Origin: an uncultured Alphaproteobacteria bacterium
Lineage (GTDB): Bacteria; Pseudomonadota; Alphaproteobacteria; ATCC43930; CGMCC-115725
NCBI GenBank assembly: GCA_963703745.1
Contig: CAVPFL010000002.1
Span: 515,637-555,636 of the forward strand
Length of the DNA: 40,000 nucleotides
Reading direction: 5' to 3'
A program made the translations under genes and the position numbers. Of this stretch, positions 5,527-20,075 are shown piece by piece. How positions within the stretch are numbered: position 1 is the first letter of the stretch; each line of letters begins with the position of its first letter. The notes under the pieces were generated by a model that saw only the letters and a list, made by a program, of their open reading frames with translations, ran no database searches and had not been told where the DNA came from.

Positions 5527-5547
5527 GTTTGATTGAAAAGGTTCGTC

Positions 5548-5990
5548 ATGAAAGTCGGCCTGTTCATCAACACGCAGTTCCCAGAGGGCTTCAACCTCGC
5601 AGAACGCGTCCCGGAGATGGTGGTACAGGTGCGCGCGGCGCGCGACGCTGGGTTCGCATCTCTCTGGTTCCCGCATCACTGGCTGACCCATCCGATGCAG
5701 ATGCTGCAGATCACGCCCGTGATGGGCTACGTTGCGGCGCACGCGCAGGGCATGACGATCGGTCCAAATATCCTGATCCTGCCGCCGCTCAATCCGGTGC
5801 ATGTGGCCGAGGAAGCCGCCACGCTCGACGTGTTGACCGGCGGCAACTACATCCTTGGCGTCGGCCTGGGCTATCGCCAGCCGGAATTCGACGCATTTGG
5901 CATTAGCCTCAGCGAGCGGGCGCCTCGGTTCAACGAGAGCATCGCCTTGATGCGTCGGCTGTGGACCGAGGAGCGGGTGAGCCACAAGGG
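5548..5990 (+). pseudogene. LLM-class (luciferase-like) flavin-dependent oxidoreductase, 5-prime fragment cut by the casposon insertion
   Basis: MKVGLFINTQFPEG...SLWFPHHW...LDVLTGGNYILGVGLGYRQPEF...RLWTEERVSHKG, after which the frame runs into TIR sequence. The rest of the gene resumes at 19527-20075. Confidence 0.88.
5977..5990. repeat. Left target-site duplication GTGAGCCACAAGGG
   Basis: An identical 14-mer occurs at 19527-19540, immediately outside the two TIR ends. The last G could belong to the TIR, so the TSD is 13 or 14 bp. Confidence 0.85.
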
Positions 5991-6127
5991 GGGGCCTCCC
6001 CACCACCACACCCTGGGGTCCCGCGAGAAGTAAGCCGTTGCCCCCCACAACCGGGACGCGAACTTGAGCGGAGCGAACGAGCGGAGCGAGCGCGACGAAG
6101 CGCAGCGAGATCGCACAAGGCTTTCTT

Positions 6128-6192
6128 ACTGGCGCAATAGATTGCAGCACTGGGAGCAGTGGAAATTCGCACTGGCGCAATAGATTGCAGCA
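6128..6192. repeat. 43-bp tandem unit in left TIR (one full copy plus a 22-bp partial)
   Basis: Unit ACTGGCGCAATAGATTGCAGCACTGGGAGCAGTGGAAATTCGC. The same unit is present five times plus a partial in the right TIR. Confidence 0.85.
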
Positions 6193-6270
6193 ACCAATAC
6201 ACTGGGCGCGCCGCTCGCAGTGGAAATCTCAGTAAAGCCGTTGATATTGCTGGGGTTGCAGTGCGGCTGC

Positions 6271-6376
6271 CACGGCAAGGCTCCGCCGGCGACCGCTGGG
6301 ATGTCTCGATCGAGCTCGGCGACCGCGAGGCCGGGGACCGGGCCGATCGCCACGGCAAGGCTCCGCCGGCGACCGC
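6271..6376. repeat. 80-bp unit, family B, left TIR (one full copy plus a 26-bp partial)
   Basis: CACGGCAAGGCTCCGCCGGCGACCGC recurs at 6271 and 6351. The right TIR has two full copies plus a partial (18888-19073). Confidence 0.8.
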
Positions 6377-6378
6377 TC

Positions 6379-6488
6379 GGGAGCCGCTGGCGTGCCCCTC
6401 GATCGCAGTCGAGGGCAGGCTCTGCCGGCCCTCGGGAGCCGCTGGCGTGCCCCTCGATCGCAGTCGAGGGCAGGCTCTGCCGGCCCAG
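6379..6488. repeat. 55-bp unit x2 in left TIR, each with a palindromic core CCCTCGA-TCGCAG-TCGAGGG
   Basis: GGGAGCCGCTGG starts at 6379 and 6434. Two copies are also present in the right arm (about 18776-18885). Confidence 0.8.
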
Positions 6489-7075
6489 CGGTCGCCGCAG
6501 CTGCCAGCCCGTGGCGATCGAGCGCGTCCCCTGCCTCGCGGTCGCCGGGCGCCGCCGAGGCTGCCCAGCGGGCGCCGCAGCTGCCAGCCCGTGGCGATCG
6601 AGCGCGTCCCCTGCCTCGCGGTCGCCGGGCGCCGTCGAGGCTGCCCAGCGGGCGCCGCAGCTGCCAGCCCGTGGCGATCGAGCGCGTCCCCTGCCTCGCG
6701 GTCGCCGGGCGCCGCCGAGGCTGCCCAGCGGGCGCCGCAGCTGCCAGCCCGTGGCGATCGAGCGCGTCCCCTGCCTCGCGGTCGCCGGGCGCCGTCGAGG
6801 CTGCCCAGCGGTCGCCGCAGCTGCCAGCCCGTGGCGATCGAGCGCGTCCCCTGCCTCGCGGTCGCCGGGCGCCGCCGAGGCTGCCCAGCGGGCGCCGCAG
6901 CTGCCAGCCCGTGGCGATCGAGCGCGTCCCCTGCCTCGCGGTCGCCGGGCGCCGCCGAGGCTGCCCAGCGGGCGCCGCAGCTGCCAGCCCGTGGCGATCG
7001 AGCGCGTCCCCTGCCTCGCGGTCGCCGGGCGCCGCCGAGGCTGCCCAGCGGGCGCCGCAGCTGCCCGCCCGTGCG
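6486..7075. repeat. 80-bp unit, family A, left TIR (seven full copies plus a partial)
   Basis: CAGCGG recurs at 6486, 6566, 6646, 6726, 6806, 6886, 6966 and 7046. Each unit has two polymorphic sites (G/T after CAGCGG; GC/GT before CGAGG). Confidence 0.9.
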
Positions 7076-7085
7076 ATTCGAGCCG

Positions 7086-7475
7086 CTATGTTTCATCGGA
7101 TACGGCGCCGGCGTTCGCGTAGGCGGCCTTGCAGAAGCGGTCGCGGCCGTTCAAAAATAGGATAAATATAGCCCTCTCCCCTAGCGAAAGGTGAGGCTGG
7201 GCGGTTTCCGAAACATGCGCAGTACAAGGTACCGATTGCGCGAAGAACCAGCTGTACACCAGCAAGTCGAGGCCGCTCGCGACGAACCCGAGCCCGTCAA
7301 CGAACACAAAGAGGAGCAATGCCCATCGCATGTGGTGGTGATCGAGCCGCTTGGGTGCGGCTGAACTGCGTAAGACCGGCGAAAAGCTCCACCAATCCAG
7401 ACGAATTTCCACGCGATACCGGCGATTGCGATCAAAGGTAAGCCGAACAATCAAAGCGAGCACAAGGCAAATCAT
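7086..7475 (-). CDS. Hypothetical small membrane protein; its C-terminus extends into the left TIR
   Basis: ATG at 7475 is preceded by AGGAGG at 6-nt spacing. Hydrophobic stretches MICLVLALIV and WALLLFVFVDGLGFVASGLDLLVYSWFF are present. The ORF ends ...AGAVSDET inside the TIR. No recognised family. Confidence 0.45.
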   Translation of the reverse strand: MICLVLALIVRLTFDRNRRYRVEIRLDWWSFSPVLRSSAAPKRLDHHHMRWALLLFVFVDGLGFVASGLDLLVYSWFFAQSVPCTAHVSETAQPHLSLGERAIFILFLNGRDRFCKAAYANAGAVSDET

Positions 7476-7501
7476 AGGGAGCCTCCTAAAAGGATCTGAT
7501 C

Positions 7502-7690
7502 CTAAAACGGATAATCCACGTTCGCCAGATGCGAGCGCGCGGAACAACCGCGAGGGTGGGGTGCGGGCACCGCGACGGATTGTAATCGCGTAAGTTGTGG
7601 AGGCGACGGCCCGTCATCGTACACAACCGGCATCACCGTCTTGCCATCCCAGCAGGGACAGCGCGGCCGTAAGAGATCGCCGCGCTTCAT
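7502..7690 (-). CDS. Hypothetical 62-aa protein, last member of a translationally coupled chain
   Basis: ATGA start/stop overlap with the upstream ORF at 7687-7690. No recognisable motifs. Confidence 0.3.
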   Translation of the reverse strand: MKRGDLLRPRCPCWDGKTVMPVVYDDGPSPPQLTRLQSVAVPAPHPRGCSARSHLANVDYPF

Positions 7691-7959
7691 TTCCGCTCCG
7701 CCTCTATCACCCTCAGCGTGGCCCGCGCGGAACGGATCAGCGAGCGATAAGCCGCCTTCTCGCCGCAGAAATCGACGCCATCGGCATAATATTCGGCATC
7801 GCTCTTCAGGTCGGCCAGGGCGGCGTCATCAAGTTCGACAACGGCGCGTCTTCCATCGTCACGGATGATCACGCGCTCGCCATCGTGATCGGAGCAGCGG
7901 TCATAGTGATCGCGCCAGAAGATGCCAGGCAGGATCAGGCGGCGCATCGTCATTTCCAT
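7687..7959 (-). CDS. Hypothetical 90-aa acidic protein
   Basis: The ORF overlaps both neighbours by a few nt. No recognised family. Confidence 0.45.
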   Translation of the reverse strand: MEMTMRRLILPGIFWRDHYDRCSDHDGERVIIRDDGRRAVVELDDAALADLKSDAEYYADGVDFCGEKAAYRSLIRSARATLRVIEAERK

Positions 7960-8171
7960 TCAGCCTGTCCGCGGCGCTGTGCCGCCTTGTTAATCGTCAC
8001 GGCACAATGCGGACACCAGTTGGCGTCTATCACGTCGCCCTCGGTCAGCGGCATGCCGCAGGGGATGTGCTCATACTCGGCATTTGCCGTTATGCGCCGC
8101 ATCTCCGCTATGTCGGCAGCCGGAATGGTTCTCACGTCCCGGTGCGGTCCTGCCTGAATGATGTAGATCAT
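7950..8171 (-). CDS. Hypothetical 73-aa protein with a possible Cys/His zinc-binding motif
   Basis: Starts MIYIIQAGPH at an ATGA overlap with the upstream ORF. Contains HIPCG ... WCPHC. The longer 115-aa version in the track is unlikely. Confidence 0.45.
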   Translation of the reverse strand: MIYIIQAGPHRDVRTIPAADIAEMRRITANAEYEHIPCGMPLTEGDVIDANWCPHCAVTINKAAQRRGQAEWK

Positions 8172-8311
8172 TGGCAGCCACTGGCGCGCGAGACGTGAAT
8201 AATCCAACTGCCGTCTGCTGCAGTAGATACCACTGGGTAAAGGTGAGACCAGCCCGCGAGATATACGGCCGCGAGAAAGACTATGACGAAGTGCCAAATT
8301 TTGCGGATCAT
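8168..8311 (-). CDS. Hypothetical 47-aa single-pass membrane peptide
   Basis: Read by hand: MIRKIWHFVIVFLAAVYLAGWSHLYPVVSTAADGSWIIHVSRASGCQ. ATGA overlaps at both ends. Below the ORF-track size cut-off. Confidence 0.4.
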   Translation of the reverse strand: MIRKIWHFVIVFLAAVYLAGWSHLYPVVSTAADGSWIIHVSRASGCQ

Positions 8312-8535
8312 GGCGCGCCCTCCGCGCGGATCAGAAGATCCACCAGCATCAAGTTGCGTTTCACTGCGGCGAGAGCCTTTGTGAGGTCGTCGCGCTCGAT
8401 CGCCAAGGTGAAATCGGCTCCTACCAGTGCGATTTCGTCCCGCAGCCGTTCTGCGAGCGGGACCAGCGGTTGGCGAAGATAGGGAGATGTGGATTGCGTC
8501 GGCTCGATCGAGCCGGTTAACGTGTCAAGGGACAT
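8308..8535 (-). CDS. Hypothetical 75-aa protein, first gene of the coupled chain
   Basis: The ORF has plausible coding composition and its stop overlaps the next start. No recognised family. Confidence 0.45.
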   Translation of the reverse strand: MSLDTLTGSIEPTQSTSPYLRQPLVPLAERLRDEIALVGADFTLAIERDDLTKALAAVKRNLMLVDLLIRAEGAP

Positions 8536-9032
8536 GGCTGCCTCTATCAGCTGTGTTCAAGTCGCTGTCGGACGTTCGCGCGTCCGGCAGCGGCGCCCTC
8601 CCCACAACGGGAGGGGCACGAATTCAGCGCTCGCGGCGGAGAAAAGTCAAGCGCGCGAAAGCGTTGAAGAGCGCTCTTTAAGCCTGCCCCGCACTGCGAT
8701 ACGGGGTCCGGACGCGCAAACGCGGAACAGTGCCCGCGTTCATCGTGCGTCGCAGCTCGTTTACCTTCTGAGCGCCCTTCCGTCCGCTGGCGCTTTGTTG
8801 TTCCGACGTTCGGGCTGCATTCGCAATCCGGGCGCCGGCGCTTCTTTGCTACGGGGTTCGGGACGCTTGCCCCTTCCGAGCGCGGGCGCTGAGTTGCTCA
8901 ACGGTAAGCTTCTTTGCTATTCCGCGTCGAAGGTTTTCACGCGCTCGCTGCGACGCTCTATCACGCTGCTCTATTGTACATAGAGCGGGCGCGCGGTTTC
9001 ATCGAATAAAAGATAGACGTATGGGAAACTTT

Positions 9033-9443
9033 TCATACCATGCGATGGCGCGGCCGTTGCTGTTGGCCCGGCTCTTTGGCGCCCGGCTCTGCGGCGGCTT
9101 TCGCGGGAGCAACGGGTTTCTCGCCATTGCCGGCCGGCGGCTTATCACCAGCCGGCGGCTTCTCGCCATTGCCAGCCGGCTTCTCGGCATTGCCGGCCGG
9201 CTTGTCCCCGGCCTTCGCCGGGGCAGGCTCGCCCGGCTTCTCACCATTGCCGGCCGGCTCAGGCTCACCATTGGTATGACGGTGGCGCCATAGCTCGGCA
9301 ATGCTGCGGTTGACGCCGCGCAATCCGCTCGCAACCGCCGCTTCGAGCCTGCCAATGCGCGTCTCTAACGCGTCGATTGCTGCGGCTCCGGCCTTCTCGG
9401 CAATGTCCAGCGCTTTGACGATTTCTGCGTCGAAATCAGCCAT
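9033..9443 (-). CDS. Hypothetical protein: helical N-terminus plus a Pro/Gly/Lys-rich repeat tail (PAGNGEKP-like units)
   Basis: Likely start MADFDAEIVKALDIAEKAG at 9443. The C-terminal half reads GNGEKPGEPAPAKAGDKPAGNAEKPAGNGEKPPAGDKPPAGNGEKPVAPAK. The underlying DNA shows imperfect short tandem repeats (9100-9280). Confidence 0.5.
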   Translation of the reverse strand: MADFDAEIVKALDIAEKAGAAAIDALETRIGRLEAAVASGLRGVNRSIAELWRHRHTNGEPEPAGNGEKPGEPAPAKAGDKPAGNAEKPAGNGEKPPAGDKPPAGNGEKPVAPAKAAAEPGAKEPGQQQRPRHRMV

Positions 9444-9678
9444 TACCGTTGCCTCGTAGCGCGTCGCGCAAGCCATCGGCAAACGCCGCACGTTGCGCGG
9501 TGCGAGCCGACTCCGCTGCAGTGAGTGCAGACTGACGCTCGAAATCGTATGATGCGGCAAGGCCACTGAGGAACCCGAGCATTGCACCTGCCTGACGGGG
9601 ATCACTGCAGGGGCATAGATCGGGATCAGTATCGAAAACTTGCCTGACATAGGCGAGAAACTGCAGAATTTCGTTCAA
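9436..9678 (-). CDS. Hypothetical 80-aa protein
   Basis: TTG start at 9678 is preceded by AAGGAGA at about 6 nt. The stop overlaps the start of the downstream repeat-protein gene. Confidence 0.4.
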   Translation of the reverse strand: MNEILQFLAYVRQVFDTDPDLCPCSDPRQAGAMLGFLSGLAASYDFERQSALTAAESARTAQRAAFADGLRDALRGNGNG

Positions 9679-9763
9679 GATCTTTCTCCTTAAAGACGAC
9701 AATAAACCTAACGCAGCATACCCTATGTTGTGCCGAGCGCGAACGCTTCCCATATCCCTATGT

Positions 9764-10057
9764 ATGTTTGAACAGACGCCTTCGCCGCTGTCGCAATGGC
9801 TGGCCTATCTCGGGATAGAGGCTGCCGTTCTCAGTCGGCGGCTAGGGTTGCATCATACCGCCGTCCGGATGGCTGCTATTCGCGGCTCGCGGCGATGCAG
9901 CTGGCTCCGGGAAGCCGAGCTATTGCTCTCCGTTCCCGCGCGCGTGCTCGTCTCGATCCCGCCGAACGATCCTCGTACGGCGCGCTATCGGGGCGAGGCT
10001 CTCATTGCAGCGGCGGAATGCCGTCTGCGCGATTTGCTGCGCGATCGAGCCTCTTGA
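9764..10057 (+). CDS. Small putative helix-turn-helix DNA-binding protein
   Basis: MFEQTPSPLSQWLAYLGIEAAVLSRRLGLHHTAVRMAAIRG resembles a Cro/CI-like HTH. Transcribed divergently from the 9678 gene. Confidence 0.45.
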   Translation: MFEQTPSPLSQWLAYLGIEAAVLSRRLGLHHTAVRMAAIRGSRRCSWLREAELLLSVPARVLVSIPPNDPRTARYRGEALIAAAECRLRDLLRDRAS

Positions 10058-10119
10058 CAATCGGAGAGATGCTTAGATATAAGCATGGGTCTAGCGTCGA
10101 TTTTAATTGGGTTCCTACC

Positions 10120-10533
10120 ATGCCAAAAACTACTCCCGCCCGCCGCGCTTCAAACCGCGAAAGTCAGAAGAAATTTCGCGAGGAAAAAGCGCGCGGGGGT
10201 ATCGTTCCTTGCACGGTTTGGGTTCCGCGCGACCGTTGCCCGGAATTGCGTGCGCTCGCCGAATTGCTCTGTTCCGATCGCGATTTGATGGTAGGTCCGG
10301 CTCGCTCTATCGAGACTGGTAGGCAAGTGTCTCGCCGGCAGTCGGCTCGCGTTCAATTTCTATACATGGGAGCGGCTTGGTCTTGCACGGCTAAAACGCT
10401 GGAAGCGCTGCACAAAGCAATCGATGCTGATAAACCGATCGAGTTGGAGCAATTCCCTGACGTACGACAAATTGCTCGCGCTGCTCCCGGTACAAAACCG
10501 CTGGTAGGTGAAACGCTTCGCTACGATCGTTGA
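10120..10533 (+). CDS. Hypothetical 137-aa protein with a basic N-terminus
   Basis: MPKTTPARRASNRESQKKFREEKARGG... No family recognised. Confidence 0.45.
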   Translation: MPKTTPARRASNRESQKKFREEKARGGIVPCTVWVPRDRCPELRALAELLCSDRDLMVGPARSIETGRQVSRRQSARVQFLYMGAAWSCTAKTLEALHKAIDADKPIELEQFPDVRQIARAAPGTKPLVGETLRYDR

Positions 10534-10536
10534 ACC

Positions 10537-10821
10537 CTAATCCGCAGCTTCCATCATTGCGCTGCGGCTCCCGAGGCTCTTTTTCTGCGCACTCCGCAGA
10601 ACTCTGCGTCGCTGCGGCTCGGGAGGCTCATGACGCTCTATACCGATATGCTGCGCCATCGCTTCCAGTGCGAGCCGCACTGAGACTATCCTCCGCTCCG
10701 CCAGCTGCGGCGCCAGCGGCAGCCTCCATGCCGCGGGATCGAGCCCGCGGGAAAGCCAACGCAGGAAAACCAATTGCTCGGGAACGCTTCTCGGCAGATC
10801 GTGCCCGCCCGGAACGTACAT
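10537..10821 (-). CDS. Hypothetical 94-aa protein
   Basis: The ORF starts 10 nt after the stop of the upstream gene on the same strand. No motifs recognised. Confidence 0.3.
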   Translation of the reverse strand: MYVPGGHDLPRSVPEQLVFLRWLSRGLDPAAWRLPLAPQLAERRIVSVRLALEAMAQHIGIERHEPPEPQRRRVLRSAQKKSLGSRSAMMEAAD

Positions 10822-10830
10822 CGCAACCCC

Positions 10831-11673
10831 TTAGCCGTATGCCGGCTGACGCGGTCGTACCTTTAGGGCAACTGGTCCGATCGGTCGAGCCGGTTGCGGT
10901 CGTAGCCGGCTCATATCGACGCGCGAATGCGCCGGACAATATACATCGCCCAGTTGTGCGACGGGACAGCCGCAGAACGAGGGCGCCAGCTGCCCGCCGT
11001 CGAGACGCGTCATTGCCGGCATCGCGCATGCGCGCCCAAAGAGAACGCCCGGAAACACGTCTGCATATAAGGTCCACGCGCCCGGTAGGCTGGCGCCTAT
11101 GGGCAATGCGATACGAGAAGCCTGCCCCTGCGGTATGACGGCGGGAAGATTTATCGTCTCGCCATCAAGTCCTGCCCCGTGCGGAGCCTGCCCCGTGCTG
11201 CGACACGGGGACACGGGGGCGGGACCGGGGAGCCCGTCCTCGAGATAATCGCCCCGCGCGAGCCGGGACAGCGGCTCGAAAACTTTAACGAGAACTCCGA
11301 TGATGCCTCCGGACGCGGGAGCCTCGGCAGCATCGGCTTCGACGTCAACCCACGGCTGCTTAGCCTCGATCGTCAGCGGGTCGACCGTGTTGCGAGCGGT
11401 TTCCCGAGCTTGCCGCGCTTCGCGCTTCTCGGCTTTGGTGCGTCGCTTGCCGATCGAGGCTTTGGGAATGCCGGCTGCAGCTGGGGACCAGCGCTTGCCG
11501 CTTTGTGAGCGAGTGGAAAGCTTCTCGATCGCAGGGAAGTACTTTTCGGGGATCGGACGTTTGCCGCTAGTCCAATGCCGCAGCTGATCGGCAGAACAGC
11601 CTATTTCGGACGCAGCGGAAAAACTGGTGTGACCGCGGGATCGCAACAGCGCGCGAAGTTCATCCTTTGTCAT
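10831..11673 (-). CDS. HTH DNA-binding protein with a GcrA-like Cys-rich C-terminal motif
   Basis: N-terminus FSAASEIGCSADQLRHWTSGKRPIP looks like an XRE/Cro HTH. C-terminus CAMP...FCGCPV...YCPAHSR resembles the CxWP...FCG...YCxxH signature of GcrA-type regulators. Confidence 0.55.
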   Translation of the reverse strand: MTKDELRALLRSRGHTSFSAASEIGCSADQLRHWTSGKRPIPEKYFPAIEKLSTRSQSGKRWSPAAAGIPKASIGKRRTKAEKREARQARETARNTVDPLTIEAKQPWVDVEADAAEAPASGGIIGVLVKVFEPLSRLARGDYLEDGLPGPAPVSPCRSTGQAPHGAGLDGETINLPAVIPQGQASRIALPIGASLPGAWTLYADVFPGVLFGRACAMPAMTRLDGGQLAPSFCGCPVAQLGDVYCPAHSRVDMSRLRPQPARPIGPVALKVRPRQPAYG

Positions 11674-11805
11674 GCTCGGATAAATGGTCGCGCGTATGAC
11701 CGATTTCAGCGGCCGGACGCAGTCAAAAGCTTGTGCTCGCGCAAGCGAGTAGCGAATGCGATCAATCGATAAGGGGATATGCGATCAAGCCGCGACCAGC
11801 TTAGT

Positions 11806-12384
11806 CTAAGCCGCGATCCGATCGAAATCGACACCGTGCTGTGCGGCGAGCCTGCGATAGCGTTCTGCCTGTTCAACCGAGAGAGGCAGGTTCCCCGTTT
11901 CGGCGCGGCGGACAACGGACTCGCGAAGATCGAGCTTTGCGGCGAGTGTCGCTTGCGTGAAGCCGAGCGACTTGCGCAGCTTCAAGAGTGCAGCCGGGGG
12001 AGGGACAGCCGTAAGCTCCCTCGTTCCTTGGGCGCCCATCCAATGAACGAGTTTTTCGACGGCTGCCTGTGAGACGGGGTTACGGCCGATTTCCCATTGC
12101 GCGACGGATTGCTGCGCGACGCCACAAATTTCCGCGATCCGGGATTGTGTCAAACCGAGCGACTGGCGCAGATCCCGCAAGACGGGACCGGCTGCCTCTT
12201 TGCGGCGCAGTAGCGGCATCAACGCTGGAATGTCTTTGGGCGTTACGAAACCCATCTGTCGCGCTTTGCGACTGATCCGAGGCTCGATTTCCTCGGCTCG
12301 TTCCTTCAGCGCAAACGCACGGTCGTAATCGCCCGCTGTAAGAGCGGCTGCAGCATCGGTCAAGAGTTTGCTCGCTTCTATCAT
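11806..12384 (-). CDS. Tandem XRE-family HTH repressor-like protein (two Cro/CI HTH domains)
   Basis: Likely start MIEASKLL at 12384. It has two units: LRQSLGLTQSRIAEICGVAQQSVAQWEIGRNPVS and LRKSLGFTQATLAAKLDLRESVVRRAETGNLPLS. Transcribed divergently from the replication/integration operon. Confidence 0.75.
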   Translation of the reverse strand: MIEASKLLTDAAAALTAGDYDRAFALKERAEEIEPRISRKARQMGFVTPKDIPALMPLLRRKEAAGPVLRDLRQSLGLTQSRIAEICGVAQQSVAQWEIGRNPVSQAAVEKLVHWMGAQGTRELTAVPPPAALLKLRKSLGFTQATLAAKLDLRESVVRRAETGNLPLSVEQAERYRRLAAQHGVDFDRIAA

Positions 12385-12389
12385 GACAG

Positions 12390-12416
12390 TTGTAACCGTC
12401 TCTTCCGTGCTATAAT
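12390..12416 (+). promoter_or_regulatory. Candidate sigma70-type promoter for the pPolB-HNH-cas1 operon (TTGTAA-N15-TATAAT)
   Basis: TTGTAA at 12390-12395 and TATAAT at 12411-12416. The first ATG of the operon is at 12424, so the transcript could be leaderless. Sequence inspection only. Confidence 0.35.
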
Positions 12417-12423
12417 TCCCCAC

Positions 12424-13128
12424 ATGATGCCACAAAAATTTTCCCCCGCACAAGATCTAGTGCAAAATCAAGCCTTTGCCTCCCGCCCGACCGGGGCAAA
12501 AGGGCAAATCGGCGGGACCGAGGCTCTACCCGATTCGTCGATTTCGCTCGCTGCGACGGGAACGGCTCACTTCTCGCAGCACGGGACAGGCATCGCGCCT
12601 GCCTTGCTTGCCGCGGTCGAGGATATCCGCTGGCGGGAATTGTTCGCCCAAGCGCGGCAAGCGCTGTCACCCGAGACGCTCGCAGAGCTAGGCGGGCTTT
12701 TGGATCATCCTGACGCCTACGATCCCGAACGCCGCGACGAAGTGCGCCAATCGCTCGAAAGGCTGATCGATACCGAGCGGCGGATCGCCGCACGGATTGC
12801 CGAGCAACGCTCCGACATTGCCGAGATGGCGGAACTGATACACGCGGAGCACGAGGCTGGTCGCGCATATCGGCGCACGGTTCGCGAGGCTTACCGCCGA
12901 CATTCCGAAGCCGAGCGGCTCGAAACCGAGCGGCGCGAAGCCGAGCGGCTCGCGGCAATCCGCCGGGTCGCCGTAGCGCAGGCTGCCCGCGACGAAAGGT
13001 CGCGGGCGGAGCGGCGGAAAGCCGACAAAGAACTGCGGCGAATTGACGCAGAGCGGCGCGCTAAAGAGCGAGCCGAGCGACAGCGCCAGCGGCTCGCTGC
13101 GTGGCCACGCAAACAGGCGTTCGCCTAA
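12424..13128 (+). CDS. Hypothetical protein with a highly charged Arg/Glu-rich C-terminal half
   Basis: 234-aa ORF that is the first gene of the plus-strand operon. C-terminus reads ERLETERREAERLAAIRR...ERRKADKELRRIDAERRAKERAERQRQR. Confidence 0.5.
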   Translation: MMPQKFSPAQDLVQNQAFASRPTGAKGQIGGTEALPDSSISLAATGTAHFSQHGTGIAPALLAAVEDIRWRELFAQARQALSPETLAELGGLLDHPDAYDPERRDEVRQSLERLIDTERRIAARIAEQRSDIAEMAELIHAEHEAGRAYRRTVREAYRRHSEAERLETERREAERLAAIRRVAVAQAARDERSRAERRKADKELRRIDAERRAKERAERQRQRLAAWPRKQAFA

Positions 13129-13796
13129 TGGCTCGCTCCCGTCGCACCTCCCGCGAGACGCTGCAGCGCCAGCGCCAGCGACAACGCGAGCGTTCGGCGC
13201 GGGATCGCGCTCGCGAAGCCGCTGCAAAAGAGACGCTGTCGGCTTCAAAGGCTGCATCGCAACGCAGCGCCCGCGAGCACTTGTTCACAGCTGCGCGCGC
13301 ACGGACGCAAGCGATTAAAGCCGGCCGGCATGGATTGCCTGAAGCTGCAGCCCTACTGCGCGAAACAGCTGCCGAGCAAGTCCGCCTGCAACGAGAAGCC
13401 GAACGCGGCGCTGCAGCCGATAGGCGCTGGCTCAAATCGCTCGTTACTCCCGCCAAGCGTCGGACGACCTACCAGCGGCGGGTTGCCAGCGGTGCGGTGC
13501 GGCAGGTTGAACGGGAGCGCGCAACTCGTGCAGCAGTCCAGTCGCAACTTCCGCCCGAATGGCCTCCTGCCAATTGGCAGCGCGACAAGTTCCGCGACCG
13601 CTTCTCTTATGCATGGTGGCTGGGATATTCGCGGCAGGATGCCAGCCTTCCGGCAAAGTTTCTAATGGAGCCGTTCGAAGTACAGCTTGACGCGATGGAC
13701 GACGCAAGACTTGCGCATATTCAATGGCTGCAGAACAAGCGGGAAGATTTAGGATTGGAAGACACGGAATATCGCAGCTATCACACAAACGGCTAA
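13128..13796 (+). CDS. Hypothetical 222-aa basic protein immediately upstream of pPolB
   Basis: The start overlaps the previous stop (TAATG). Arg-rich N-terminus MARSRRTSRETLQRQRQRQRERSARDR. Trp/Tyr-rich C-terminal region SYAWWLGYSRQD...IQWLQNKRED. No family recognised. Confidence 0.5.
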   Translation: MARSRRTSRETLQRQRQRQRERSARDRAREAAAKETLSASKAASQRSAREHLFTAARARTQAIKAGRHGLPEAAALLRETAAEQVRLQREAERGAAADRRWLKSLVTPAKRRTTYQRRVASGAVRQVERERATRAAVQSQLPPEWPPANWQRDKFRDRFSYAWWLGYSRQDASLPAKFLMEPFEVQLDAMDDARLAHIQWLQNKREDLGLEDTEYRSYHTNG

Positions 13797-13800
13797 GCCT

Positions 13801-16107
13801 ATGCTCGATCAAGCTGGCGAGATTACTTTCGGATATCCCGATGATTACTTTTGGGAATTGACCGAAGTTGATCGAGGCAATCCCGGACTGGTCGCCAAGC
13901 GCTGCAAGCGCTGCGCGCGCGCGGAACAGGCGATCGAGCTATGGTTCGAAGGCGAGCGCAAGCGGGATGCGCGTTGCCCATTGTGCGGCGCCATCGTCCA
14001 CAACCAAAACCGACATAAGGGACCGGACTTGCGCTCGCGCAAAGGCGATCGTCACAAGTCGGGTAGGAAAGATCCCCGCTACAATACGGCCGATCGCGCG
14101 ACGGCTCCGTTCATCGCCATCGACGGCGAGGGCGCGGGAACCAACGAGCATGGCCAGCAGAATTACTTATACATGGCCACTTGCGACGTGAGCGGCGAAG
14201 TAATATCAGAGCTCTTCGAAGACAATCGAGCGCTCTCGACAAAAGAATGTTTGGAATATATTCTGAAACTTCCAAAGCATAAGCTGATTGTCGGGTTTCA
14301 TTTCGACTATGACGTAACGATGATTTTACGAGATCTACCAATCAAACAACAAAGAAGACTATTCCTGCCTTTGCCACGGAGAAACAATCCTAATAATGAA
14401 GAATGTGCGTTCTATACCTACTGGCAGGATTACGCCATCCAATACATTCCCTACAAGCATTTGATGGTCTCGCGCCGAATAGATCGCAACGTCAATCAAA
14501 ACATTCCGGAGACTACCCGCACAATCAACTTTGTTCAAGGGTACTTCTCCGGCGGATTAGTTGACGTTGCTCAGTCTTGGTGTGGTCTCGATGCGTGCTC
14601 GATTGCCGAACTTGAAAAGATGAAAGCGGCGCGACCGTCTTTCGAAAGCATAACACCGGAAATCAAAAGCTATTGTCAAAAAGAATGCCAGTATCTCGCC
14701 GTGGCAATGCATAAGTTCCGCGAGATCGTACTCGCGGGCAACGCTGCGCTACAAGAGCGCTTGCCGAACGTCAGCCTGATACCGCGCGATTGGCAGGGAC
14801 CGGGACCAATGACGCAGCGCTTGCTCGCGAGCCTCGGCATACCAAAGCGAGACGACCTCCCCGAGCATGATCCCGAATTCATGGAAGCGGCGCGAGCAAG
14901 CTTCTCCGCCGGCCGGACTGAGATCGCCCTAACCGGCCGGATCGATGGTCCGGTCTATGCCTATGACTTGAACTCGGCTTACCCTGCAGCGATCCTGCAG
15001 CTACCATGTCAGCGGCATACCCGCTGGTGCAAGGTGACAGAGCCGGCTCCCGGATCGCTCTATTTCGCCCGGCTCAGCTGGAAGCAACCGGCTCGATCCC
15101 GCTGGGGTGCGTTTCAGGTACGCTCGAAATTCCAAACCCTGTTCGCGCCGCTCTCCGGAGCGGGCTGGTATTGGTCGCCTGAGATCGAGGCTGCAGGCAA
15201 GCTGCGCGCCAAGGTACAGTTGCATGAGATATGGCAAGCCGAGAGATGCTGCGATTGCCATCCTTTCGCGGCGATCAAATCGATTTATGACTACCGCAAG
15301 TCGCTCGATAATGACCAGCTAGAATATCCGATCAAACTTGTGTTGAACACCCTTTACGGCAAGTTCTCGCAAAGAATAGGTGCGGCGCCTTACTATGATC
15401 CGATTGCCGCGGGATTAATTACCTCGATCGTTCGCTCACGGCTGATCGAGGCGATCAGTCTCGATCCCGAGGCAGTCATAATGGTTGCGACCGATGCAGT
15501 CTATTCGACGCGTCCGCTTGCGCTCGAAATCGACAAGCAGTTAGGACATTGGAAATTAACGAAGCATCTGGCCGGAGCGTTCGTTGTTCAACCGGGCGTA
15601 TGGTGGCCACTGTCCGAAGCATCGGGAATGTTTGACCACAAAACCCGCGGCATTCCTCAGCGAGCTATTGTGCCAATGGTAGATCAATTCTATGACGCAT
15701 GGGACCAATACATACGTTTTACTAGTTCTAAATACTCTCCGAACATCGAAGATTTAGGACAACCTACTGTTGAGATACCCTATCAAGTCTTTATTCCTTT
15801 GAAGCTGTCGCTGCATCCCGAAATGCTGATGCTGTATAAGATCGATCCTGCGTCGGCGCGTTCCGGTCAATGGATCGAGCGCAAGCATCCAGTCCGCTTC
15901 AACTGGCGCACAAAACGGCGCCTTGGCGGCTGCACTCTGCAAGACGGACACGTCAAGCATTGGCCTTATCCCGATATGGACGGGGAGAGCGGCACGGCTT
16001 TTGATGGGGCGGAGCTAGATCGATTGATGGCATGGCAGAACGAAACCGAGTATGCTTATCCCGACAGCGGCTATTCGCCGCTCGATTTCATCCCGAAACC
16101 CGAGTGA
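13801..16107 (+). CDS. Family B DNA polymerase, protein-primed type (pPolB)
   Basis: 768 aa. Exo motifs FIAIDGEG (DxE) and HFDYD. Polymerase motif A YAYDLNSAYPAA (DxxSxYP), motif B KLVLNTLYGKFSQ (Kx3NSxYG-like), motif C MVATDAVYS (DTD-like). Confidence 0.88.
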   Translation: MLDQAGEITFGYPDDYFWELTEVDRGNPGLVAKRCKRCARAEQAIELWFEGERKRDARCPLCGAIVHNQNRHKGPDLRSRKGDRHKSGRKDPRYNTADRATAPFIAIDGEGAGTNEHGQQNYLYMATCDVSGEVISELFEDNRALSTKECLEYILKLPKHKLIVGFHFDYDVTMILRDLPIKQQRRLFLPLPRRNNPNNEECAFYTYWQDYAIQYIPYKHLMVSRRIDRNVNQNIPETTRTINFVQGYFSGGLVDVAQSWCGLDACSIAELEKMKAARPSFESITPEIKSYCQKECQYLAVAMHKFREIVLAGNAALQERLPNVSLIPRDWQGPGPMTQRLLASLGIPKRDDLPEHDPEFMEAARASFSAGRTEIALTGRIDGPVYAYDLNSAYPAAILQLPCQRHTRWCKVTEPAPGSLYFARLSWKQPARSRWGAFQVRSKFQTLFAPLSGAGWYWSPEIEAAGKLRAKVQLHEIWQAERCCDCHPFAAIKSIYDYRKSLDNDQLEYPIKLVLNTLYGKFSQRIGAAPYYDPIAAGLITSIVRSRLIEAISLDPEAVIMVATDAVYSTRPLALEIDKQLGHWKLTKHLAGAFVVQPGVWWPLSEASGMFDHKTRGIPQRAIVPMVDQFYDAWDQYIRFTSSKYSPNIEDLGQPTVEIPYQVFIPLKLSLHPEMLMLYKIDPASARSGQWIERKHPVRFNWRTKRRLGGCTLQDGHVKHWPYPDMDGESGTAFDGAELDRLMAWQNETEYAYPDSGYSPLDFIPKPE

Positions 16108-16120
16108 CGCAATCGCGCTG

Positions 16121-16717
16121 ATGTCCGGCTCCCCTGTCGACCGATTCCGCCGCGCCGCTGCAACACGGCTCGATCACTATGCAATCCTCCACCCGCAGTG
16201 TGTCTATTGCGGCGACGCTGTAATGTCGCGCATGCGCGGCAGTGGCGAGACACGGCATTATGATCATTTTATACCGATCGAGATTATCATTCGCGCTCGC
16301 GAAGCATATCCACTGCAGCGATTTCCGAACTGTCTATTGCCGTGCTGTCGCCGCTGCAACGGCTTTGCCGGATCGTTCTACTTCTCGATATTATCTAAGA
16401 AATTCAACTACTTACAGTGGAAAATCGGCGATTACGAGCCCCGCTTGCGAGCGCGCGTCGCGGCAATCGTTCTGCAGAAATTCAGCGGGCTTGAAGTACC
16501 GCAAGCGCTCGCCGATATCGTGCACCCAATGGAAGAATTCCGCGACGGCGATTATCCTATATTGGAGCCAGTGCGTCTCGATAATGGAAACTGGTCTATT
16601 GCGCAAGAACTCGCGGAAAGGGCGCTTGCACTGCAATGGAATTCTCAGACACCAATTTCGGAGCCGTCAAAAACGGCGTGCTCGTTCTCTCCGGATTTAG
16701 AATTCGTGTCAGGGTAG
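16121..16717 (+). CDS. HNH endonuclease
   Basis: CVYCGD...HYDHFIPIE...NCLLPCCRRCN matches the CxxC...H-N-H...CxxC architecture. Located between pPolB and cas1. Confidence 0.78.
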   Translation: MSGSPVDRFRRAAATRLDHYAILHPQCVYCGDAVMSRMRGSGETRHYDHFIPIEIIIRAREAYPLQRFPNCLLPCCRRCNGFAGSFYFSILSKKFNYLQWKIGDYEPRLRARVAAIVLQKFSGLEVPQALADIVHPMEEFRDGDYPILEPVRLDNGNWSIAQELAERALALQWNSQTPISEPSKTACSFSPDLEFVSG

Positions 16718-18060
16718 AAGCGGGCGCGCTCGTTGTGCAAGACGGAATAAAGGGAGCCGAGATCGAGCGGCGCTTTCCGCGCGCCAGCTGTCCGGTCTCG
16801 CGATTGATCGCAGTGCAGCCGGAAGGCATTATCACGTTCGCTGCGCTGCGCTGGCTCCACAATGTAGGCGCTTCGTTCGTTCAACTCGACTATGACGGAA
16901 CGCCTATCGCGACCAGCTTGCCGCGGGGCACTGTTCCGGCTGCACTGCGGCGAACGCAAGCGCTCGCCTCGATTGAGACGCGACTCGGCAAGGCTATTGC
17001 TCATAGTCTCATTAGGGCGAAGATCGCGGCGCAAATCGCGACGCTGCGCAGTTGCGACCGCGACGCAACTGCAATCAGCGCCTTTGCAAATGAGTTGCAG
17101 TCTCGCGCCAGCATGCTCGAATTACTGGGCACCGAGGGCAATGCATCCGCCGTCTATTGGCAAGCGCTGGCGAACGTGCCGCTGCAGTTCGGAAAGCGCC
17201 AATCCCCGGATCAAGTCCGGGGAGTTCCCGAGCATTGGCGAGTGTTCGGCTCCCGCACGTCTAGCATGACTGGCGCGCCGCGCGGCGCGCCAGTCATGCT
17301 AGACGTGACTGGCGCGCCGCGCGGCGCCGTTGTCCCCGCGCAAGCCGTGCTGAATTACCTCTATGGCGTGCTCGCCAGCGAGATCACCATAGCGTTGCAC
17401 GCGGCCGGTCTCGATCCCGCGTTGGGCATACTGCACGCGGATAAAGTCGGCGGGACTTCGCTCGCTTATGACTTGATGGAACCCGCGCGACCGCTTCTCG
17501 ACCGCTGGCTGTTGCACTGGCTGCAGACTGCGACGTTTTCGAAGCGCGATTTCCGCGAAGACATTTACGGCTTTATCCGGGTGACGCATCCGCTGACTTC
17601 GCACCTTGCAATGACTGCGGCATTGTGGCGCGGGATCGCAGAGCAACTGGCGGAGTGGATCTATCGGCGGTTGAACGGAGAGAACGCGGCTCTTCGATTG
17701 ATTGGTGTCGATTGGCTTTCATCCGAGGCAAGGCGCCGCGCAGTTCGCTGGCGTCTCGGGCACACGATGCAGCGGCCGGTTCCCGCGACATGCGCGGAAT
17801 GCGGTAAGGCTCTTCCGAAAGGGAGACGGCGGTTTTGCTCGGGAGATTGTATGAGGGCATGGCACGGCGAAGTTCTGACGACTGCCGGCATGCTCGCAAT
17901 CTCCCGCCTTTCTCCCGCCGCCCGTTCCGACCGTTCCCGCCGCTCCGCCCTCTCGCGATCACCCGAGGCACGGCGCGAGGCTGCGCGGACTGCGGCAAGG
18001 GCTCGCTGGGCGCGACGTGCGGTCGCGGTCGCGGGCGCCGTATCCGATGATGAAACATAG
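16636..18060 (+). CDS. cas1: Cas1-family integrase (casposase) with a C-terminal Cys4 zinc-ribbon/FCS-like extension
   Basis: The N-terminal beta domain is Cas1-like (VLSGFRIRVRVEAGALVVQDG...ITFAALRWLHNVGASFVQLDYDG). Catalytic-region motifs are LLGTEGNASAVYWQAL (Glu) and ILHADKVGGTSLAYDLMEPARPLLDRW (His, Asp/Glu). The C-terminus has CAECGKALPKGRRRFCSGDC. The stop lies 5 nt before the right TIR. Confidence 0.88.
   Translation: MEFSDTNFGAVKNGVLVLSGFRIRVRVEAGALVVQDGIKGAEIERRFPRASCPVSRLIAVQPEGIITFAALRWLHNVGASFVQLDYDGTPIATSLPRGTVPAALRRTQALASIETRLGKAIAHSLIRAKIAAQIATLRSCDRDATAISAFANELQSRASMLELLGTEGNASAVYWQALANVPLQFGKRQSPDQVRGVPEHWRVFGSRTSSMTGAPRGAPVMLDVTGAPRGAVVPAQAVLNYLYGVLASEITIALHAAGLDPALGILHADKVGGTSLAYDLMEPARPLLDRWLLHWLQTATFSKRDFREDIYGFIRVTHPLTSHLAMTAALWRGIAEQLAEWIYRRLNGENAALRLIGVDWLSSEARRRAVRWRLGHTMQRPVPATCAECGKALPKGRRRFCSGDCMRAWHGEVLTTAGMLAISRLSPAARSDRSRRSALSRSPEARREAARTAARARWARRAVAVAGAVSDDET
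17259..17304. repeat. Perfect 46-bp palindrome inside cas1, followed by a third partial copy (17307-17327)
   Basis: GTCTAGCATGACTGGCGCGCCGC|GCGGCGCGCCAGTCATGCTAGAC, checked base by base. Encodes the duplicated peptide MTGAPRGAPVMLDVTGAPRGA. Confidence 0.95.
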
Positions 18061-18109
18061 CGGTCGCGAACGCCGGCGCCGTATCCGATGAAACATAGCG
18101 GCTCGAATC

Positions 18110-18780
18110 GCACGGGCGGGCAGCTGCGGCGCCCGCTGGGCAGCCTCGGCGGCGCCCGGCGACCGCGAGGCAGGGGACGCGCTCGATCGCCACGGGCTGG
18201 CAGCTGCGGCGACCGCTGGGCAGCCTCGGCGGCGCCCGGCGACCGCGAGGCAGGGGACGCGCTCGATCGCCACGGGCTGGCAGCTGCGGCGCCCGCTGGG
18301 CAGCCTCGACGGCGCCCGGCGACCGCGAGGCAGGGGACGCGCTCGATCGCCACGGGCTGGCAGCTGCGGCGACCGCTGGGCAGCCTCGACGGCGCCCGGC
18401 GACCGCGAGGCAGGGGACGCGCTCGATCGCCACGGGCTGGCAGCTGCGGCGACCGCTGGGCAGCCTCGGCGGCGCCCGGCGACCGCGAGGCAGGGGACGC
18501 GCTCGATCGCCACGGGCTGGCAGCTGCGGCGCCCGCTGGGCAGCCTCGACGGCGCCCGGCGACCGCGAGGCAGGGGACGCGCTCGATCGCCACGGGCTGG
18601 CAGCTGCGGCGCCCGCTGGGCAGCCTCGACGGCGCCCGGCGACCGCGAGGCAGGGGACGCGCTCGATCGCCACGGGCTGGCAGCTGCGGCGCCCGCTGGG
18701 CAGCCTCGGCGGCGCCCGGCGACCGCGAGGCAGGGGACGCGCTCGATCGCCACGGGCTGGCAGCTGCGGCGACCGCTGGG
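18110..18780. repeat. 80-bp unit, family A, right TIR (eight full copies plus a partial)
   Basis: CCGCTGGG recurs every 80 bp, with its last base at 18140, 18220 and so on up to 18780. The order of the two polymorphic sites differs from the left arm. Confidence 0.9.
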
Positions 18781-19151
18781 CCGGCAGAGCCTGCCCTCGA
18801 CTGCGATCGAGGGGCACGCCAGCGGCTCCCGAGGGCCGGCAGAGCCTGCCCTCGACTGCGATCGAGGGGCACGCCAGCGGCTCCCGAGCGGTCGCCGGCG
18901 GAGCCTTGCCGTGGCGATCGGCCCGGTCCCCGGCCTCGCGGTCGCCGAGCTCGATCGAGACATCCCAGCGGTCGCCGGCGGAGCCTTGCCGTGGCGATCG
19001 GCCCGGTCCCCGGCCTCGCGGTCGCCGAGCTCGATCGAGACATCCCAGCGGTCGCCGGCGGAGCCTTGCCGTGGCAGCCGCACTGCAACCCCAGCAATAT
19101 CAACGGCTTTACTGAGATTTCCACTGCGAGCGGCGCGCCCAGTGTATTGGT

Positions 19152-19388
19152 TGCTGCAATCTATTGCGCCAGTGCGAATTTCCACTGCTCCCAGTGCTGC
19201 AATCTATTGCGCCAGTGCGAATTTCCACTGCTCCCAGTGCTGCAATCTATTGCGCCAGTGCGAATTTCCACTGCTCCCAGTGCTGCAATCTATTGCGCCA
19301 GTGCGAATTTCCACTGCTCCCAGTGCTGCAATCTATTGCGCCAGTGCGAATTTCCACTGCTCCCAGTGCTGCAATCTATTGCGCCAGT
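19152..19388. repeat. 43-bp tandem unit in right TIR (partial plus five full copies)
   Basis: GCGAATTTCCACTGCTCCCAGTGCTGCAATCTATTGCGCCAGT repeated from 19174 to 19388. Confidence 0.9.
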
Positions 19389-19526
19389 AAGAAAGCCTTG
19401 TGCGATCTCGCTGCGCTTCGTCGCGCTCGCTCCGCTCGTTCGCTCCGCTCAAGTTCGCGTCCCGGTTGTGGGGGGCAACGGCTTACTTCTCGCGGGACCC
19501 CAGGGTGTGGTGGTGGGGAGGCCCCC

Positions 19527-19540
19527 GTGAGCCACAAGGG
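19527..19540. repeat. Right target-site duplication GTGAGCCACAAGGG
   Basis: Identical to 5977-5990. Confidence 0.85.
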
Positions 19541-20075
19541 CCGGTTCTACACAGTCAACGACGCCGGCATTGGGGTGAAGCCAGTGCGCCCAGGTGGGCC
19601 GACGGTCTATATCGCCGGACAAGCCGACGTCTCGGTGAAGCGCGCGGCGCGGATTGGCGATGCATGGCTAATCGTGAACACCAGCGGCCTCGGCAAGGTG
19701 ATTTCACTGATGCAGACCTATCGTGCGGCACTGAAGCAATATGGCCGCATTCCAATGGAATTCCCGATCACCGTCGAATGCTATGTCGGCGCACGGCATG
19801 CGACAGCGCATCAGGAATGCCGCGGGCCGCTAGAATACAAATACAACGCCTACGCGTCATGGGGGCTGCAGGACCGCACGACGCACGGTTCGTTCGAGGA
19901 TTTCGCCCGCGACCGGTTCATCATTGGCGACAAGGGATCGGTAAAGGAGGAGATCGCGCGGTACCGCGAGCTTCTAGGTGTCGATCACTTCATCATGCGC
20001 TGCCAGTGGCCGGGGCTGCCGCAGGAGCAGGTGCTGAGCTCGATCCGACGCCTCGGCGAGATTTTCGCGTCTTAG
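19527..20075 (+). pseudogene. LLM-class oxidoreductase, 3-prime fragment (continuation of 5548-5990)
   Basis: VSHKGRFYTVNDAGIGVKPVRPGGPTVYIAG...HFIMRCQWPGLPQEQVLSSIRRLGEIFAS. Joining 5548-5990 to 19541-20075 gives 978 nt, in frame and without stops. Confidence 0.88.

Follow-up and report, generated by a model that had tools for sequence, protein, structure and literature searches.

What kind of element interrupts an oxidoreductase gene of an uncultured soil alphaproteobacterium, and could it still move? We examined this question in a 40,000-nt stretch of DNA (contig CAVPFL010000002.1 of assembly GCA_963703745.1; the whole stretch is called the window hereafter), where a gene for a luciferase-like monooxygenase (LLM) oxidoreductase is split by a 13.5-kb unit that encodes a Cas1 homologue. 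Casposons are self-synthesizing DNA transposons that use such a homologue, the casposase, as integrase, and the CRISPR adaptation machinery has been proposed to descend from them; what is known of casposons comes from a few dozen elements, mostly archaeal. To our knowledge no bacterial casposon has been shown to move and none has been reported inside a gene. A sequence-only reading of the window had proposed that the unit combines Cas1, a family-B DNA polymerase (PolB) and an HNH protein between terminal inverted repeats (TIRs) and a target duplication in the LLM gene, and every test that we ran supported this core. We conclude that the element is very probably a casposon of the family-3 casposase lineage, in which a tectivirus-type protein-primed polymerase (pPolB) replaces the PolB with motif 'CDTDS' and which carries no virion genes.

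Insertion site and element boundaries

The 14-nt sequence GTGAGCCACAAGGG occurs exactly twice in the window, at the two positions where the flanking repeat had been noted (5977-5990 and 19527-19540); 0.02 matches would be expected by chance, and none of 100 shuffles contained two copies. The element proper lies between them (5991-19526, 13,536 bp), at about codon 148 of the 325 codons of the LLM gene. The mid-gene position claimed from the sequence is therefore correct, and it differs from that of the described bacterial casposons, all of which were reported as intergenic (PMC4046053, PMC4779613). The duplication is 13-14 nt long, since base 5990 (G) can be assigned either to it or to the inverted repeat. 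As the sequence-only reading had argued, this length fits casposase integration: the Aciduliprofundum boonei casposase produces 13-15 bp target duplications in vitro (PMC5137440), and the duplication of NitAL212-C1, a family-3 casposon, is 14 nt. The parts of the insertion site are:

5548-5990, plus strand: 5' part of the interrupted LLM gene, codons 1 to ~148, defined by the rejoined open reading frame (ORF)
5977-5990: left target-site duplication, GTGAGCCACAAGGG, one of only two copies in the window
19527-19540: right target-site duplication, the second copy of GTGAGCCACAAGGG
19541-20075, plus strand: 3' part of the interrupted LLM gene, defined by the rejoined ORF and by orthologues

Excision of 5991-19540 in silico gave, as predicted, an open LLM reading frame of 325 codons (978 nt), the product of which aligned over 100% of its length with intact LLM/Bac_luciferase (PF00296) proteins of 324-326 aa at up to 93% identity. 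The named best matches of this ORF were in metagenome-assembled genomes (MAGs) of Stellaceae and Acetobacteraceae, and the host flanks are alphaproteobacterial. An empty site, as suggested for verification, was present in related genomes: the rejoined gene aligned without gaps at the junction with two uninterrupted orthologues (88% and 84% nucleotide identity), the target site was single in each of them (e.g., GTGAGCCATAAGGG), and in one (L091) the upstream genes are those of the window, encoding a transketolase-like E1 beta, E1 alpha and TauD. The base composition of the element is foreign; the GC content is 52-57% in the polB-HNH region and 75-79% in the repeat arrays, compared with 60-68% in the flanks.

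Some other features of the window and of the orthologous loci can be recorded here. An intact second LLM paralogue is found at 38184-39224 on the plus strand (PF00296, E = 3.9e-61), and the metagenome contig that carries the most similar intact LLM gene (L090, 93% aa identity) has an IS110-family transposase gene (524-1573) directly upstream of it. A tRNA-Glu gene lies at 36742-36817 on the minus strand and is not the target of the casposon. About 5 kb to the right of the casposon, a DDE transposase of the insertion sequence type (DUF772 + DDE_Tnp_1; 24686-26155, minus strand) represents an unrelated second mobile element.

The casposase, the polymerase and their relatives

Three large genes form the core of the element:

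13801-16107, plus strand: 768-aa family-B DNA polymerase, protein-primed class, whose N-terminus carries a CxxC...CxxC zinc ribbon
16121-16717, plus strand: divergent HNH-motif protein, 198 aa, recognized by its motif and a weak PHROG match
16636-18060, plus strand: Cas1-family integrase (casposase), 474 aa, consisting of the Cas1 core, a C-terminal zinc-binding domain with four Cys, and a basic tail

The integrase matched the Cas1 profiles PF01867 (E = 1.4e-36), the search that had been suggested for it, and TIGR00287 (E = 1.1e-31); no member of the family alignment deviates at E167, H267 or D279. The AlphaFold2 model (36-sequence alignment) had a predicted local distance difference test score (pLDDT) of 86, and its best fold match in the PDB was the Methanosarcina mazei casposase 6OPM (E = 9.6e-17), with CRISPR Cas1 structures scoring just behind. 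Family scans (Pfam, NCBIfam and PHROG), which covered all ORFs of at least 75 aa in the 7.1-18.1 kb interval, revealed no integrase or transposase other than Cas1, and the 40-kb window contains no cas2, CRISPR array or other cas gene, in agreement with the sequence-only reading.

Comparison of the window Cas1 by blastp with the casposase cores from Additional file 2 of PMC4046053 gave the following identities and E values:

AceAut-C1 (family 3): 40%, 2.5e-62
StrAlb-C1 (family 3): 33%, 4e-39
Saccharopolyspora (family 3): 32%, 6e-37
NitAL212-C1 (family 3): 32%, 7e-37
HenMar-C1 (family 3): 28%, 4e-29
family 2 casposases: 24-30%, 5e-27 to 6e-21
family 1 casposases: 23-24%, ~2e-15
CRISPR Cas1: 1e-9 or weaker

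All five published family-3 cores outranked family 2, family 1 and CRISPR Cas1. In a neighbour-joining tree of Cas1 with 100 bootstraps, the pPolB-linked Cas1s were monophyletic in 97 replicates; in 61, AceAut-C1 alone among the named references grouped with the window Cas1, which was sister to the Streptomyces provirus Cas1 (see below) in 2. Only such shallow groupings were used, because the deep nodes of the tree did not resolve and CRISPR Cas1s were interspersed among them. The placement that had been proposed as a check thus gave family 3 as the closest group and CRISPR Cas1 as a far weaker one, with no resolution of the deep branching. Judged by these comparisons, the casposase belongs to family 3; the polymerase does not.

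The polymerase matched phrog_11768 (E = 3.5e-31) and PF03175 DNA_pol_B_2 (E = 1.4e-8), the latter, again a suggested search, with 34.5 bits over a cut-off of 25.8; PF03175 comprises polymerases of the organellar and viral protein-primed class. Among phage proteins it comes closest to the enzymes of Toil, Badulia and WheeHeim, which are actinobacterial tectiviruses (27-29% identity, ~1e-39); next come those of Acidianus bottle-shaped viruses (ABV, ~5e-6), weak matches and the only ones to archaeal viruses. The family consensus is followed in Exo I-III and in motifs A, B and C, and motif C ('ATDAVYS') has the 'TD' form also found in Toil ('ETDGIFS'). A total of 1,198 clusters at E<1e-30 make this a large polymerase family. 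From its motifs and matches, the polymerase is intact and of the protein-primed class. This makes the element unusual, since families 2 and 3 have been described with an RNA-primed-type PolB (PMC4046053, PMC4779613), and it is archaeal family 1 that is characterized by a protein-primed PolB, which groups with archaeal viruses (PMC4046053, PMC11161782). The sequence-only reading had described family 3 as combining cas1 with pPolB, which is not what these publications report.

The protein collection contained about 108 Cas1 homologues, and related Cas1 genes were present in 160 loci of species-representative genomes, almost all of them soil MAGs, distributed over Acidobacteriota, Chloroflexota, Actinomycetota, Gemmatimonadota, Proteobacteria and others. 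We examined the neighbourhoods of 80 of these loci. In 55 of them, within the range L004-L080 (e.g., L004:4274-7438, minus strand), a divergently transcribed gene 1-4 kb upstream of cas1 encodes a protein of ~1000 aa; this protein has no Pfam match, but its consensus shows Exo I-III, DxxSMYPT, KxxxNSxYG and the motif C 'CDTDS', by which it is a casposon-type PolB of the PolB_CDTDS group of PMC7544198. Because 55 of 80 related loci neighbour this polymerase, we take the Cas1 lineage to be a casposon lineage. Loci of this type have TIRs and target duplications; one of them, in an Actinomycetes MAG (L015:136-14593), is a CDTDS-type casposon delimited by 382-nt perfect TIRs and a 12-14-nt duplication, TCAACAGGAGCC. 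The CDTDS-type PolB is absent from the window element, and among the related loci pPolB was seen only in the subclade of the window (the P0002 contig, L096, L082-84 and L098) and in L030, which belongs to a neighbouring branch.

L030 (positions 1512-16576), from a proteobacterial MAG (CAVYXK010000001.1), is a second complete pPolB casposon and measures 15.1 kb. Perfect TIRs of 189 nt and the 14-nt duplication AGGTTCTTCGGGGC delimit it; it encodes a pPolB (E = 5e-16) and Cas1, carries GmrSD-like, radical-SAM and methyltransferase cargo genes, and also sits inside an ORF. L098 (positions 120-11566), a forest-soil contig from the Cas1 clade of the window, has, besides pPolB and Cas1, an operon of small genes that runs leftward and includes a PRD1-type membrane DNA delivery protein (phrog_8052, E = 1.5e-7) and a transglycosylase-like domain. 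By its gene content, L098 is probably a Cas1-bearing tectivirus-like provirus outside Streptomyces; the genes of its virion region have no counterpart in the window.

Terminal repeats and remaining gene content

Outside the three core genes, the element is composed of:

5991-7119: left TIR, 1,129 nt, with the terminus GGGGCC (GGGGGCC if counted from 5990); from the terminus inward, a 137-nt unique sequence, a 43-nt unit in 1.5 copies (6128-6192), an 80-nt unit 'B' in 1.4 copies (6269-6375), a 55-nt unit in 2 copies (6376-6486), an 80-nt unit 'A' in 7.5 copies (6483-7083) and a 36-nt inner end
7505-7691, minus strand: decayed mirror copy of the cas1 3' end (helix-turn-helix, HTH, domain), interrupted by an in-frame stop and a frameshift; its native stop is at 7502-7504
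9764-10057, plus strand: conserved 97-aa ORF with homologues in L001 (65%) and in the tectivirus-like L098 (44%), called independently on the Logan contig L093
10120-10533, plus strand: 137-aa ORF, phrog_11804 (E = 2.7e-10)
10831-11673, minus strand: 280-aa protein with an HTH-like N-terminus (phrog_4779, 1e-3; YdaS-like, 8e-4), with homologues in L001 and L098
11806-12453, minus strand: Xre-family regulator with two HTH domains (PF01381, 5.2e-16; PF13560, 1.1e-13)
12424-13128, plus strand: 234-aa basic, helix-rich protein, first gene of the operon, conserved in position and, in L001, in sequence
13128-13796, plus strand: 222-aa basic protein, candidate terminal (priming) protein by position, ending 4 nt before polB
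18065-19526: right TIR, 1,462 nt, with the same modules as the left arm; from the terminus inward, the 137-nt unique sequence, the 43-nt unit in 5.5 copies, unit 'B' in 2.4, the 55-nt unit in 2, unit 'A' in 8.5 and the 36-nt end

The inverted repeats reported at the ends of the unit are thus real and much larger than had been implied (1.13 and 1.46 kb). The two arms are 98-100% complementary, perfectly so over their outermost 203 nt (5990-6192 versus 19324-19526), and the 332-nt difference in length between them corresponds exactly to the differences in unit copy number. The 9-mer GGCGACCGC occurs 29 times in the arms (12 left, 17 right), against 2.15 expected for the window; its orientation is opposite between units A and B, and short palindromes are found inside the array units. 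Homologues of the 80-nt unit follow cas1 directly in L081 (Cas1 70% identical) and form 81-nt repeats ~2 kb downstream of cas1 in L089 (Cas1 78% identical). Such conserved subterminal repeats are candidate protein-binding sites for an origin or for end recognition. The window has no tandem arrays outside the repeats, and its element terminus showed no similarity to the Toil genome ends. Published casposon TIRs measure 25-602 nt, with a median of 56 (PMC4046053), and the longest of them, 602 nt, is that of AceAut-C1, the nearest named relative of the window Cas1. The run of five G or C at the element ends was considered as a sign of sliding-back initiation and was down-weighted, since non-pPolB casposons commonly end in G/C runs as well.

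The Xre regulator gene is transcribed divergently from the replication/integration operon, and its position is shared by the P0002 contig, L082 and L096. Neither the 234-aa nor the 222-aa protein matched any family in Pfam, NCBIfam or PHROG. Terminal-protein genes are usually found directly upstream of pPolB genes (PMC4046053), and the 222-aa product is a candidate for this function by analogy of position; it showed no similarity to the Toil genes upstream of the Toil polymerase. The HNH protein has residues that are invariant in four homologues (C27xxC30, H46xD48H49, N70 and C75C76xxC79N80) and a weak match to the HNH family phrog_10378 (E = 0.0075), with zero matches in Pfam, NCBIfam and PDB sequences or profiles; its AlphaFold model (3-sequence alignment) had a pLDDT of 35. 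What had been called an HNH nuclease is accordingly accepted here, by its motif, as a putative divergent HNH protein. An independent gene caller gave an identical gene set on a public contig of the same sequence.

No capsid, packaging ATPase or structural gene was detected by Pfam or PHROG in any element ORF, and tblastn with the Toil coat (major capsid protein, MCP), ATPase and other virion proteins gave no similarity to the element. About 6.7 kb of the element lie outside the three large genes, and the largest unassigned ORF there has 186 aa; sequence similarity and coding capacity together argue that virion genes are absent.

The P0002 contig, L096 and L082-84 share the core operon with variations. 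The P0002 contig has the order HTH (minus strand)/198/212/PolB/177/Cas1, and the ~212-aa gene was seen in this contig only. L096 has HTH (minus strand)/~234 aa/pPolB/177-aa HNH/Cas1 together with a resolvase and MmeI cargo. In L082-84, three separate metagenome contigs, the pPolB is divided into two overlapping ORFs (541 and 492 aa; L082:6820-9508), which could represent a frameshifted pseudogene or programmed frameshifting; its sister in L096 is a single 893-aa ORF. The closest genomic relative of the element, in an alphaproteobacterial MAG (L001:1-11352, Cas1 66% identical), appears rearranged or decayed and is uninformative on boundaries: cas1 there is fragmented into a number of ORFs, and the HTH, 234-aa, 222-aa and PolB genes lie ~7 kb off in the opposite orientation. 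As for the element itself, the exact Cas1 and PolB proteins are on record from a 1.97-Mb contig, and two other public runs yielded its unique part at 99.98-100% identity. A metagenome scan with Cas1 returned three short fragments only, and the plasmid collection gave no match to it.

Present mobility, rival explanations and biological meaning

The sequence-only reading described the element as complete and possibly still mobile. The perfect duplication and the open cores with consensus motifs agree with this, but the casposase lacks its HTH domain. With 474 aa it is shorter than most of its relatives (510-530 aa), whose C-terminus has an additional domain of ~55 aa that shows an HTH pattern; the domain is retained in the 78%-identical L089 Cas1 and is absent in at least three relatives (P0004, P0013 and P0021), and P0004 terminates at the equivalent position. 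A 41-nt duplication (18019-18101) lies at the inner border of the right repeat, where the unit is present in 2.1 copies, compared with one at the left, and its first copy includes the cas1 stop codon. This duplication is probably the scar of the deletion that took the HTH domain. The decayed mirror copy at the left end (see list) is located just inside the left repeat and points toward the left terminus. It was the single window match of a hidden Markov model of the relatives' C-terminal domain (minus strand, 7613-7089, E = 3.2e-5; next best 0.54), and it keeps the family ending '...PHPR-L-RALA...YPF-stop'. When 7120-7500 was compared with regions downstream of cas1 in relatives, the HTH remnant was the only homology found. 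The presence of this mirror implies that an inverted duplication once extended into cas1 and that the right end has since lost ~0.6 kb, including the HTH part. The left remnant has diverged far more than the remaining Cas1; the HTH domain may thus have been lost long ago and its absence tolerated.

It is possible, although we do not favour it, that the same element is by now an immobilised or non-autonomous relic, integrated once by its own or a relative's full-length casposase and then deprived of the HTH domain by a deletion from about codon 457 of cas1 to the inner edge of the right repeat. The short Cas1 that ends in the 41-nt duplication at the repeat border, the domain retained in L089 and the mirror copy persisting at the left would all be expected, and deletion of the HTH domain abolishes the activity of the M. 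mazei casposase in integration (PMC6977970). This account is harder to reconcile with the perfect duplication, the 98-100% identical arms, the open PolB, HNH and Cas1 cores, the other HTH-less relatives and the strong divergence of the left remnant; moreover, family-1 casposases naturally lack the HTH domain and are nevertheless active (PMC8464041). Present autonomy is doubtful in view of the truncated Cas1 and the decayed mirror beside the left repeat, and the claim of present mobility is weakened to an uncertain one; having lost the HTH domain, the present copy may rely on a full-length casposase in trans.

The remaining explanations concern the identity of the element. An integrated tectivirus-like provirus, that is, a virus with a borrowed casposase rather than a transposon, would account for the Toil-like polymerase; the clade-mate L098 has tectivirus-type genes, and the Streptomyces 'family 3' elements provide a precedent (PMC5894146). 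We consider it unlikely, given that no ORF resembles Toil coat, ATPase or virion proteins or any structural PHROG or Pfam family, that the ~6.7 kb beyond the large genes hold no unassigned ORF above 186 aa, that the L098 virion region has no counterpart here, and that the Cas1 was sister to the Streptomyces provirus Cas1 in just 2 of 100 bootstraps. An assembly artefact, either a chimeric join or collapsed repeats, might be suspected in a MAG-type assembly, where kb-long arrays of 43-80-nt units are hard to assemble and the arms differ in copy number only. It is nonetheless very improbable: a chimera would not give a precise 14-nt duplication and a seamless host ORF, the protein is on record on a 1.97-Mb contig, the unique part was recovered in two other runs, and L030 independently shows the same architecture. 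Even less credible is a stand-alone or degraded CRISPR adaptation gene (cas1-solo) that came to lie near a polymerase by chance. Pfam and NCBIfam do name the protein CRISPR-associated Cas1, but the window lacks cas2, array and other cas genes, the protein is far nearer to casposases than to CRISPR Cas1, its linkage to PolB is conserved in relatives, and TIRs and a target duplication bracket the unit.

Several points weigh against the reading as a casposon with a family-3 casposase and a tectivirus-type pPolB. The domain missing from its Cas1 is kept by the 78%-identical relative and by most others, and is essential in the M. mazei enzyme. The 40-kb window holds no second copy of the element and no excised form, and the copy numbers in the kb-long repeats might include assembly error. 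The deep part of the Cas1 tree mixes in CRISPR proteins, as described above. Protein priming is predicted from the class of the polymerase, the terminal protein from gene position, the role of the arrays from their sequence, the HNH assignment from a motif rather than a confident fold, and the exclusion of virion genes from similarity and coding capacity. With these points counted, the reading as such a casposon remains, in our judgement, very probable.

This casposon can be compared with several known systems. It resembles the family-3 elements AceAut-C1, NitAL212-C1 and HenMar-C1 in its bacterial host, its closest Cas1 and its HNH and HTH genes; with AceAut-C1 it shares the zinc-binding domain C-terminal to Cas1 (accompanied by an HTH domain in the window's relatives), with NitAL212-C1 the 14-nt duplication, and with family 3 the TIR termini rich in G/C runs. 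It differs from them in the PF03175 protein-primed polymerase in place of a 'CDTDS' RNA-primed-like PolB, and in TIRs of 1.13 and 1.46 kb made of tandem arrays, compared with 36-602 nt. The Streptomyces elements (StrAlb-C1 and that of S. noursei) have been re-read as Toil-like tectiviral proviruses with a capsid gene (PMC5894146), and in the literature searched they were the only bacterial case of Cas1 with pPolB. Like the window element they combine a family-3-type Cas1 with a Toil-like pPolB in a bacterial chromosome, between TIRs and a duplication. Unlike it, they have a double-jelly-roll capsid protein and a virion module, neither detectable by sequence in the window; their Cas1, which is 33% identical, lies on another branch and was not the sister of the window Cas1 in 98 of 100 bootstraps, their host is actinobacterial rather than alphaproteobacterial, and the StrAlb-C1 TIR is 116 nt. 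Family 1 (Thaumarchaeota, NitAR1-C1) likewise has no capsid, a pPolB, a candidate terminal-protein gene upstream and an HTH-less casposase, but it is archaeal, targets the 3' end of the gene for archaeal elongation factor 2 (aEF-2), has a pPolB that goes with His1/His2 and TIRs of ~70 nt, and its Cas1 is 23-24% identical. Polintons/Mavericks, tectiviruses and linear plasmids are likewise self-synthesizing and share the pPolB, long TIRs and a presumed start of replication at the ends; their integrase is of the retroviral type, a tyrosine recombinase or missing, and they have virion or other modules and other hosts. In the literature searched, no bacterial casposon without a capsid was described as carrying a tectivirus-type polymerase, and neither kb-scale array TIRs nor mid-gene insertions of casposons were described; a broader casposon survey is mentioned as unpublished (PMC9966878).

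Integration and replication might proceed as follows. A casposase oligomer would join the 3'-OH of both repeat termini (GGGGGCCTCC...) to the two strands of the target at positions 14 bp from each other; filling of the gaps would leave the 14-nt duplication, a length in line with the 'yardstick' of 13-15 bp of the A. boonei casposase (PMC5137440). Once excised or copied, the element in its linear form would be replicated from its ends by the pPolB, primed by the terminal protein, with the 80-, 55- and 43-nt arrays, their GGCGACCGC iterons and palindromes, possibly serving as platforms for element DNA-binding proteins at the origin or the ends; the HNH protein could help in end processing. The polymerase module may have been swapped with Toil-like tectiviruses or their proviruses, and the ends may be regenerated by end-copying, as the cas1 remnant suggests.

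Beyond this, we tentatively propose, as one possibility among others, that the element is the type specimen of a distinct bacterial casposon lineage, in effect a fifth family, with a family-3-derived casposase, a tectivirus-type pPolB/terminal-protein module, no capsid, kb-long iteron-array TIRs and no site specificity; the two complete pPolB elements (window and L030) both lie inside ORFs, at unrelated 14-mers. If so, the cas1 mirror remnant would record regeneration or homogenisation of the ends by end-copying, the element would live partly as a linear, protein-capped replicon, and its lineage would lie on a route of exchange between tectiviruses and casposons, with the clade-mate L098 still carrying virion-type genes.

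The ~160 species-level genomes with a related Cas1, and the polymerase unrecognised by Pfam in most of the 80 loci examined, suggest that soil bacteria harbour many more casposons than the published lists would lead one to expect, as a large and apparently uncatalogued population. With boundaries placed to the exact base pair and orthologues that show the sequence before insertion, the window element offers a clean case of recent insertion in which integration chemistry and target choice would be directly testable in a bacterial system. It further indicates that the replication module of a casposon may be exchanged with a tectivirus module, also in capsid-less elements, which would link two classes of self-synthesizing elements.

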